Positions 59,992 to 61,355 of a stretch of 64,000 bases of DNA are shown here, in pieces. This stretch comes from a virus (taxonomy: Duplodnaviria > Caudoviricetes): the IMG/VR virus record IMGVR_UViG_2814123430_000001, positions 691 to 64,690 of that record. One strand, given 5' to 3'. The notes beneath the pieces are model-generated. The model was given only the letters and a program-made list of their open reading frames with translations. It was not told the DNA's origin and made no database searches. Position numbers and translations under genes: made by a program. Positions within the stretch are counted from its first letter, which is position 1. The number at the start of each line of letters is the position of its first letter.

Positions 59992-60027
59992 TTGACATAA
60001 CCATTCTTGAGCCTTATAATAGGCTCA
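59992..60027 (+). promoter_or_regulatory. Perfect consensus sigma70 promoter with palindromic operator
   Basis: TTGACA-17 bp-TATAAT; TGAGCCT/AGGCTCA arms flank the -10 box. Confidence 0.9.
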
Positions 60028-60082: not shown

Positions 60083-60385
60083 ATGAAAAACTTAAACCAA
60101 CAACTAAACCACCTAACCCCATCAGCAGATTGGATTACAACTAAATTGCAAGATGCGTATGATAACTTAAACCAACAATTAAATATTGTGGTTGATGATA
60201 AAAACGGATTTTTTGCAGTTGCGATAGCATACCAACAAGCCTGCGACCAAAAACCAGAAGTTGCTGACAAGATGCAACGTATAGCAAGTTTAATTGTAAA
60301 ACGAGCTAACCAAATCGAAAAAAGACGTAAAGCGCTAATCAATAGCTTAACTATAACCGAACAAGAACAATTAATCATCGCTTAA
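60083..60385 (+). CDS. Hypothetical 100-aa protein (candidate anti-CRISPR)
   Basis: AAGGAGG SD; first gene after strong promoter; no recognised family. Confidence 0.7.
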   Translation: MKNLNQQLNHLTPSADWITTKLQDAYDNLNQQLNIVVDDKNGFFAVAIAYQQACDQKPEVADKMQRIASLIVKRANQIEKRRKALINSLTITEQEQLIIA

Positions 60386-60444
60386 TAAATCAATACCCCA
60401 CTAAATTAAGTGGGGTTAATCTTACTCTATTGGAGACTCAAAAA

Positions 60445-60954
60445 ATGAATTACAAAGAAATCATGTATACTGTAGGTCAGCTTGTCCGCTGCGTTTATGG
60501 GGTTGATGTGCCAGTCAATGTACAAAATACCATTATCAGATTCCCGGCTAAAGGGATTGGCTTAATGAGTCAGCGCGGAGATATTATCAATACAGGTAAC
60601 CAAGATGAGGTTATGCGCCTAATGGATAAAATCCCGAGCGATTTAACCGACCCTAAAGACAAAATGGAGTTTGACGCTCAAGGTGCTTTTTGGTTAGGTT
60701 ACTATCATTACGCCAAGATAACAGATAATGTAGCAAACTATGGTGCTAACGAGTTAGCTGTAGTAGGCAATGCTCTATATGGCGATCAATGGCAAACTGC
60801 TTTATCTAGAGATCTTAATTTATCTAGCCCAAGACGTATGCGCGCTTGGATTTCTGGTGAGCGTAAAATCCCTACTGGTGTCTGGTTTGATATTATCTCG
60901 CTATTAAAAGCGAGACAGTTAAAAATTGAAGAGATTATTAAAAAACTAGCATAA
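60445..60954 (+). CDS. Cas11c/Cas8c-C-terminal-like domain fused to Aca-like HTH
   Basis: GGAG SD; QGAFWLGYYH motif at 60679-60708; C-terminal ALYGDQWQTALSRDL...RRMRAWISGERKIP HTH. Confidence 0.65.
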   Translation: MNYKEIMYTVGQLVRCVYGVDVPVNVQNTIIRFPAKGIGLMSQRGDIINTGNQDEVMRLMDKIPSDLTDPKDKMEFDAQGAFWLGYYHYAKITDNVANYGANELAVVGNALYGDQWQTALSRDLNLSSPRRMRAWISGERKIPTGVWFDIISLLKARQLKIEEIIKKLA

Positions 60955-60956
60955 AT

Positions 60957-60985
60957 AAAAATGGCGCTTTGATTGCGCCATTTTT
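60957..60985. terminator. Bidirectional terminator between moron and Q
   Basis: AAAATGGCGC-TTTGATT-GCGCCATTTT. Confidence 0.8.
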
Positions 60986-60986
60986 A

Positions 60987-61355
60987 TTATCCTAAAAACA
61001 TAAATTTTATTTTAGCAGCGACAAAAGCGCCTTTTAAAAATCTAATACCTTGCGCACGTTCTCTGTACATTTTAGCTGGTGAGATGTTAAGAGCATTGCA
61101 AATCTCTCTCTCGCTTGCTTGTTGTACGTATAAGCCCATTACTATTTGATATTGCAATAAGTTGTCATCGTGTAGGTTAATTATTTGAGTCTCTACTTTT
61201 AAACACTCATCATCGGTTAAAAACTTAATGTAGGCCTTTCTTGCTGTCGGTAGCACTGGGATTGAGATTGTTGTGCTTGGATATTCTGTGCCAATTCTGT
61301 CACGCCCCCAACAACTACCCCATTTTTCTAAAATTCGCTCAACGCTATAAGTCAT
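60987..61355 (-). CDS. Late antiterminator Q
   Basis: ILEKWGSCW...EICNALNIS.....RER..G..FL.G; upstream of pR'. Confidence 0.8.
   Translation of the reverse strand: MTYSVERILEKWGSCWGRDRIGTEYPSTTISIPVLPTARKAYIKFLTDDECLKVETQIINLHDDNLLQYQIVMGLYVQQASEREICNALNISPAKMYRERAQGIRFLKGAFVAAKIKFMFLG

Follow-up and report, generated by a model that had tools for sequence, protein, structure and literature searches.

Organization of the Locus

The window, that is, the whole stretch of 64,000 nucleotides analyzed here, was taken from a 64.7-kb provirus record of IMG/VR. The carrier is a lambdoid Haemophilus prophage. It contains a two-gene unit, hereafter the cassette, in which a 100-aa ORF (gene 1, product P0002) is followed by the gene for a 169-aa protein (gene 2, product P0001); both are transcribed against the phage late genes. 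The coordinates of the features are listed in Table 1. A preliminary description of the sequence had placed a 169-aa plus-strand ORF at this site, between Q and the lysis genes. The ORF is present, and the motifs ascribed to its product (YTVGQL, PAKGIGL, VMRLMDKI, DAQGAFWLGYYHY, and ALYGDQWQTALSRDL...RRMRAWISGERKIP) were all found in P0001. The site was borne out by the PHROGs annotation, with genes for a Q-like antiterminator, RusA, and HNH on one flank of the cassette and holin, endolysin, Rz/Rz1, and terminase genes on the other.

Table 1. Features of the cassette, its flanks, and related upstream genes. Coordinates refer to the window unless another locus is named.
Feature	Position	Strand	Basis or remark
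Cassette sigma-70 promoter, TTGACA-17-TATAAT	59992..60020	+	12/12 consensus positions
Palindromic candidate operator, GAGCCTTATAATAGGCTC	60009..60026	+	Encloses the -10 box
Gene 1, P0002, orphan 100-aa protein in acr position	60083..60385	+	
GC-rich hairpin in the gap between gene 1 and gene 2	60395..60416	.	Flagged on the minus strand
Gene 2, ORF of the 169-aa protein P0001	60445..60954	+	Translation agrees with the residues quoted in the preliminary description
Cas11c-like domain, P0001 residues 1-95	60445..60729	+	hhalign, family profile, VIA
Aca-like HTH, P0001 residues ~99-169 and stop codon	60739..60954	+	Foldseek, VIA, Pfam
Terminator-like hairpin, GGCGC-N7-GCGCC	60956..60986	.	Read from sequence; A-run before, T-run after
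Q-like antiterminator	60987..61355	-	PHROGs; convergent with the cassette
AcrIE7/AcrIF23-like upstream genes	L001:3667-3951, L003:3674-3958, L054:2472-2936, L042:40-321, L044:2375-2770, L061:2820-3410		

The closest relatives of P0001 come from Haemophilus haemolyticus and uncultured Haemophilus (87-93% identity) and are annotated as hypothetical proteins; "hypothetical protein" was the only name returned by the word-based homologue search and the atlas. No match to Cas_Csd1 above the threshold was obtained within the 64.7-kb provirus record, and the P0001 gene is a moron located outside any cas operon. A Haemophilus-type cassette with 92% identity was also observed on contig CAUQBM010000012.1 (L002), which is filed in a Candidatus Saccharibacteria MAG, probably through a binning error.

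The promoter of the cassette is kept in the relatives before either of the two versions of gene 1. The terminator-like hairpin downstream of gene 2, which was not flagged by the consensus scan, separates the cassette from the Q gene. In addition, the minus strand next to the start of the holin gene, on its upstream side, contains a promoter-like site (59937-59909) together with a strong terminator (59856-59831), and this pair resembles pR'/tR', the site of action of the Q antiterminator. If this reading is right, the cassette came to lie between Q and the promoter that Q controls, and the cassette promoter is divergent from pR'.

First Gene of the Cassette

P0002 was without a match in Pfam, PHROG, NCBIfam, PDB, and the atlas. 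The promoter, 5' UTR, and SD sequence are nearly identical before two unrelated versions of gene 1, one encoding P0002 and the other a 94-aa protein. An L.GSEKQI.WA..I core is common to the 94-aa protein, the products of the upstream genes of L054, L042, and L044, and gp34 of the Mannheimia phage. This GSEKQ family corresponds to PHROGs 16984, 16123, and 6775, to which no function is assigned. Its profile, compared with solved structures, matched AcrIE7 (E 7e-4) and AcrIF23 (E 5e-3), with no other match below 0.1. Gene 1 was found to be an AcrIE7/AcrIF23 homologue in L001, L003, L035, L037, L047-L052, L054, L042, L044, and the Mannheimia phage. Judging from these profile matches, the GSEKQ-family genes would be the first AcrIE7/AcrIF23 members seen in phages of Pasteurellaceae, bacteria that possess type I-C systems. 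P0002 replaces the AcrIE7-like gene product at the same promoter, SD, and start position and is a candidate new anti-CRISPR. A Cas-derived origin of gene 1 (GSEKQ family) was also considered and rejected, as the hhalign comparison with Cas8c found nothing.

N-Terminal Domain of P0001

Residues 1-95 of P0001 are homologous to the C-terminal domain of Cas8c, that is, to Cas11c. With P0001 alone as the query, the best matches in Pfam, NCBIfam, and PDB were to the extreme C-terminus of Cas8c/Csd1 or to the Cas11c chains of the type I-C Cascade, all of them sub-threshold. Cas_Csd1 (PF09709), the top Pfam match, reached 12.8 bits against a cut-off of 27, and TIGR01863, the top NCBIfam match, 13.9 bits against a cut-off of 218. 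The match is significant at the level of the family and not for P0001 by itself. The family, as collected by an exhaustive search, comprises proteins of about 170-190 aa with 25-43% identity, and its distant members have a start of the form MPLD/MSLD...YL.GRL and an end of the form FW.GYYHQR. The Pfam model Cas_Csd1 was matched by 24 of 45 family members (best E 8.3e-9). The hhalign comparison of the N-domain family with the C-terminal 135 residues of 31 Cas8c proteins from Pasteurellaceae gave a probability of 96.4% and E 1.4e-9 over 87 columns, with P0001 residues 3-92 aligned to the entire small-subunit region. The family profile matched Cas11c of D. vulgaris (7kha_K, E 2.4e-8, chain residues 4-119 of 124) and Cas11 of N. 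lactamica (E 3.6e-6), and its ten best PDB matches were all type I-C Cas8c/Cas11c. When run against 400 Gammaproteobacteria genomes, the profile retrieved almost only the C-termini of Cas8c frames of ~590 aa, including that of one host genome. Cas11c is translated from an internal start at residue 489 of D. vulgaris Cas8c (PMC7684278). The N-termini of the distant family members coincide with this start, which suggests that the captured unit was the cas11c reading frame.

The AlphaFold2 model of P0001 was obtained with a pLDDT of 96.2 and a pTM of 0.86. In the VIA comparison, model residues 1-97 were superimposed on the Cas8c C-terminal domain 8g9u_H 465-573 (Z 7.0, rmsd 3.0 Å, 93 residues), and the N-domain also matched 8dej_I 496-608 (Z 6.4); values of 6.4-7.0 are middling for helical bundles alone and convincing only when combined with the profile evidence. 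The top Foldseek matches of the N-domain were all type I-C Cas8c/Cas11c, at a weak E of 0.3. The likeness to Cas8c/Cas11c, which had been proposed from motifs, proved real both by profile (hhalign and the PDB profile) and by fold. The proposal of a "stolen Cas11c" holds for the homology but overstates recency: the identity between the N-domain of P0001 and the host Cas11c is only ~17%, so that the split must be ancient. Eight repeated stretches of a secreted-looking protein of 1181 aa (P0153) were also found to match query residues 8-42; this match may be spurious.

The signature QG.FW.GYYH is nearly invariant across the phage family, and the W of FW.GYY is invariant. The phage domain is ~25 residues shorter than Cas11c according to hhalign, and its median pI is 5.5 versus 9.1 for Cas11c. 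In type I-C, the displaced strand is normally held by the Cas11c subunits, and O'Brien et al. reported that, of the residues in contact with the non-target strand, only F605, K607, and K608 are highly conserved (10.1101/2022.06.15.496202). The segment after GYYHQ is GYYHQKQSYFAKK in the host protein and GYYHYAKITDNVA in P0001; at the F-x-KK positions the host has YFAKK, D. vulgaris LFTK, and P0001 TDNVA. The F-x-K-K contacts are absent from P0001, and the family alignment has no conserved aromatic or basic residue at this place. A kept core together with a lost DNA groove would be the pattern expected of a subunit that fits its place without doing its job.

C-Terminal HTH Domain and Candidate Operator

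The C-terminal HTH, likewise claimed in the preliminary description, was corroborated by structure comparison and by Pfam matches at the family level. Foldseek aligned this part of P0001 with Aca2 (7vjq_A) with a probability of 0.99 and an rmsd of 1.9 Å over 71 columns. VIA retrieved the N-terminal part of AcrIF25 (Z 7.9), Aca10 (Z 7.6), and Aca2 (Z 6.9), with further matches to Aca1, Aca7, and the HTH of AcrIF24. A YdaS_toxin/Cro-type HTH model of Pfam was matched by 22 of 45 family members. For the named Aca family Aca2_YdiL (PF08965), the score of P0001 was sub-threshold (12.9 bits versus a cut-off of 23.8), and weak matches were recorded in only 3 of 45 members. The HTH was also found by itself in hundreds of proteins.

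The palindrome GAGCCTTATAATAGGCTC occurs once in the window and was absent from 100/100 shuffles. It is present in the relatives with symmetrical changes, namely GTCC-N8-GGAC in L003 and GCC-N8-GGC in the Mannheimia phage, and the proteins of the relatives with an altered palindrome differ in the presumed recognition helix. Such symmetrical changes would be expected of an operator evolving in step with its repressor, and the HTH is predicted to bind there. The comparison of sequences supports an acr-aca layout in which a palindromic candidate operator covers the -10 box.

Distribution of the Domain among Phages

The family is rare, a full-length member having been detected in 3 of 201 Pasteurellaceae genomes and 1 of 400 class-level genomes. 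The cassettes occupy various settings: between Q and the lysis genes, beside the integrase, at the prophage end after the tail genes, in the early regions of Mu-like phages, and among the early genes of lytic Xanthomonas oryzae myophages. The isolated phages that carry a gene of the P0001 family all infect hosts with type I-C.

Without the HTH, the Cas11c-like domain was found as a stand-alone protein of 90 aa in at least 20 Mu-like phage contigs and in two other fusions, so that it has an independent role. In one Mu-like phage, the 90-aa gene lies just after mor (L092:3001-3273), and in another the domain forms the C-terminal half of a 217-aa protein encoded between gemA and mor (L045:3318-3971). 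In the lytic OP2-like X. oryzae myophages, the early region contains two tandem Cas11c-like-HTH paralogues, which in phage XPP1 are gp35 and gp34 (L062:3477-4551). The type I-C Cascade contains two Cas11c subunits.

Type I-C Systems of the Hosts and Self-Targeting

Type I-C systems had been said to occur in Pasteurellaceae, and they are in fact common there, with Cas8c detected in 69 of 201 species genomes. Among the four genomes with a full-length homologue of P0001, Cas8c was found in G001, G002, and G150, and none was detected in G167. A total of 230 spacers was taken from 17 I-C arrays; 12 of them, from 8 Pasteurellaceae genomes, match the phage of the window over at least 26 identical bases, compared with 0 in 10 shuffles. 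The best spacers against the window include one perfect match (36/36) and one with a single mismatch (34/35), and both protospacers have the TTC PAM.

The search for a host I-C locus with self-targeting spacers was positive in lysogens of the cassette. The genome of the isolate Haemophilus sp. CCUG 60358 (G002) contains full-length cas3, cas5c, cas8c, cas7c, cas4, cas1, and cas2 and an array of 15 repeats. Among the spacers of G002, one is identical (34/34, TTC PAM) to a site in the tail module of the cassette-bearing prophage of this genome, 8 kb from the cassette. Near-perfect self-matches were also found in G001, a MAG whose bin may mix strains. Tolerated self-targeting is a classical sign of a resident Acr. 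The self-targeting in G002 means that the lysogen has either some I-C inhibitor or an inactive system; it does not single out the responsible gene.

The I-C locus of G002 is in addition a defence island within the cas operon. Two genes for ThsB-like TIR proteins and a gene for a SLATT_3/SLATT_1 two-TM effector are situated between cas3 and cas5c (L091:8813-10573, contig 8 of G002), and an unannotated ORF of 316 aa lies between cas4 and cas1.

Proposed Function and Alternative Explanations

In the reading that we propose, and to which we assign about an even chance of being correct, P0001 would be a dual Acr-Aca protein encoded by the second gene of a self-contained anti-CRISPR cassette, binding both DNA and Cascade and inhibiting the latter. 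The C-terminal HTH would bind the palindrome that encloses the -10 box, probably as a dimer, and would thereby repress the very strong promoter of its own cassette, which is the function of an Aca. The N-domain, a descendant of Cas11c, the type I-C small subunit made from an internal start of cas8c, would take the place of Cas11c on Cascade or cap the C-terminal domain of Cas8c. The resulting Cascade would be unable to stabilize the R-loop or to license Cas3, which would be the Acr function.

Several points speak against this proposal. The ~17% identity to the host Cas11c contrasts with the 38% between AcrIB4 and Cas8b (10.1101/2023.06.24.545427), and a mimic that docks directly might track its host more closely. 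The AcrIE7/AcrIF23 homologue encoded upstream in most relatives could explain all of the Acr activity. Finally, G167 has the cassette, and Cas8c was not detected in it.

In the main alternative, which we hold to be possible but distinctly less probable, P0001 would be a plain Aca, the repressor of the cassette, its Cas11c-derived domain would be a dimerization or stability module, and the Acr would be the product of gene 1. The gene for P0001 is in the aca position, downstream of gene 1, which in most relatives encodes a homologue of validated Acrs; the -10 box is covered by the candidate operator palindrome, and the HTH resembles Aca2, Aca10, and Aca1. Many HTH regulators, Aca2 among them, have an extra helical dimerization domain. 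However, the Cas11c-like domain occurs in accessory regions of phages alone or in fusions lacking the HTH, and the HTH alone in hundreds of proteins; since each half occurs separately, neither needs the other. Moreover, a mere dimerization module would not be expected to keep the signature motif of Cas8c nearly invariant or to retain the exact N-terminus of Cas11c.

It is improbable, in our estimate, that the cassette has nothing to do with CRISPR and that P0001 is a generic moron regulator, for instance of superinfection exclusion or of a toxin-antitoxin-like pair, which shares only an old ancestry with Cas11c. The match of 22 of 45 members to the YdaS-type HTH of cryptic-prophage modules, the deep divergence from Cas11c, and the cassette of G167 would agree with such a role. 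Against it stand the validated Acrs among the homologues of gene 1, the Cas8c of the Mannheimia-type genome G150, and the self-targeting spacers tolerated by lysogens. The hosts of the isolated carrier phages, all of them with type I-C, argue in the same direction; the system of Xanthomonas oryzae is a functional one (PMC8406640).

The last alternative, to which we give very little credence, is that the domain docks on the I-C Cascade or the R-loop mainly for a purpose other than poisoning it, either titrating the repressor, with derepression of the operon at high levels of Cascade, or guiding the AcrIE7-like single-stranded DNA binder to the displaced strand. The distant L054, L042, and L044 (25-48% identity) have retained an AcrIE7/AcrIF23-like partner gene, and AcrIE7 binds the single-stranded DNA of the R-loop and so blocks Cas3 (PMC12002350), a strand that in type I-C is normally held by Cas11c, but the idea is purely inferential, the cassette of the window is without an AcrIE7-like partner, and the stand-alone form has no HTH to titrate. 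A version that joins both elements, in which the docked domain and the upstream AcrIE7-like binder would together trap the displaced strand and sequestration of the repressor would make expression track the amount of Cascade, seems to us unlikely as well.

Comparison with Known Systems

Type I-C, which also serves as a tool for long-range genome deletion, is one of the most frequent CRISPR subtypes. To our knowledge, the known type I-C inhibitors block either PAM recognition or Cas3. A mimic of the small subunit, if true, would be a new way of inhibiting type I-C and the first I-C counterpart of AcrIB4, with the regulator built in. The family is old, has fused and stand-alone forms, and is spread over phages of Proteobacteria; it would mark many unexplored anti-CRISPR loci, including the orphan gene 1 of the window and the AcrIE7/AcrIF23-like genes of Haemophilus. 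The self-targeted lysogen with its full-length I-C operon is a natural test system. A search of the literature found no description of a Cas11c-like or Cas8c-derived phage protein or of an Aca with such a domain.

Compared with Cas11c itself (PF09709, TIGR01863; 7KHA chain K, 8G9S chain H), the N-domain of P0001 shares the helical bundle, which can be aligned from end to end, a first helix with Y.LGRL, a last helix with QG.F..GYYH, and, in distant members, an N-terminus that matches the internal start. It differs in being encoded outside a cas operon, in its shorter length, its acidic instead of basic character, the loss of F-x-KK, the invariant W of FW.GYY in the phage family, and the score of P0001 below the Cas_Csd1 cut-off.

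The HTH fold of P0001 is common to Aca2, Aca10, and Aca1 (PDB 7VJQ, 7XI5, and 7VJN), and, as for these proteins, the gene is located downstream of an acr gene (an AcrIE7/AcrIF23 homologue in the relatives, the orphan gene 1 in the window) and an inverted repeat overlaps the promoter. Unlike in them, the HTH is C-terminal and follows a Cas-derived domain, and the Aca2_YdiL score is sub-threshold.

The arrangement of the cassette parallels that of the acrIF23-acrIF24 operon of Pseudomonas aeruginosa, in which the gene after acrIF23 encodes AcrIF24; this protein has its HTH at the C-terminus and is regarded as a probable dual Acr-Aca (10.1101/2020.05.22.110304). Both consist of two genes, the second of which encodes a two-domain protein ending in an HTH, and gene 1 of the cassette relatives belongs to the GSEKQ..WA family of AcrIF23 and AcrIE7. 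In contrast, AcrIF24 has no likeness to Cas11 in its N-terminal part and acts on type I-F, and gene 1 of the window cassette is an unrelated orphan.

A homologue of a cas subunit that acts as an Acr had been cited as known for type I-B, and this precedent is real. AcrIB4, which is encoded on mobile elements of Listeria seeligeri and is the nearest known parallel to P0001, shows homology to the 90 C-terminal residues of Cas8b and blocks type I-B at a step before DNA binding, as validated experimentally by Katz et al. (10.1101/2023.06.24.545427); it was proposed to replace Cas11 in the EVADES preprint (10.1101/2025.06.06.658234). Like the Cas-derived inhibitors AcrIB3 and AcrIB4, P0001 is homologous to a Cascade subunit while its gene is carried by a mobile element at a distance from any cas locus, and the cognate subtype is present in three of the four host genomes (G001, G002, and G150, not G167), with I-C spacers targeting the phage. 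In both P0001 and AcrIB4, the homology to the large subunit is limited to its C-terminal (Cas11) part, and the proposed mechanism, a faulty or replacement small subunit, would be the same. AcrIB4 is directed against type I-B, much closer in sequence to its Cas8b, confined to Listeria, and validated, whereas P0001 is derived from type I-C, distant from the host protein, fused to an HTH, part of a family extending across phages of Proteobacteria, and a candidate only. P0001 would thus combine a Cas-derived Acr with an Acr-Aca fusion.
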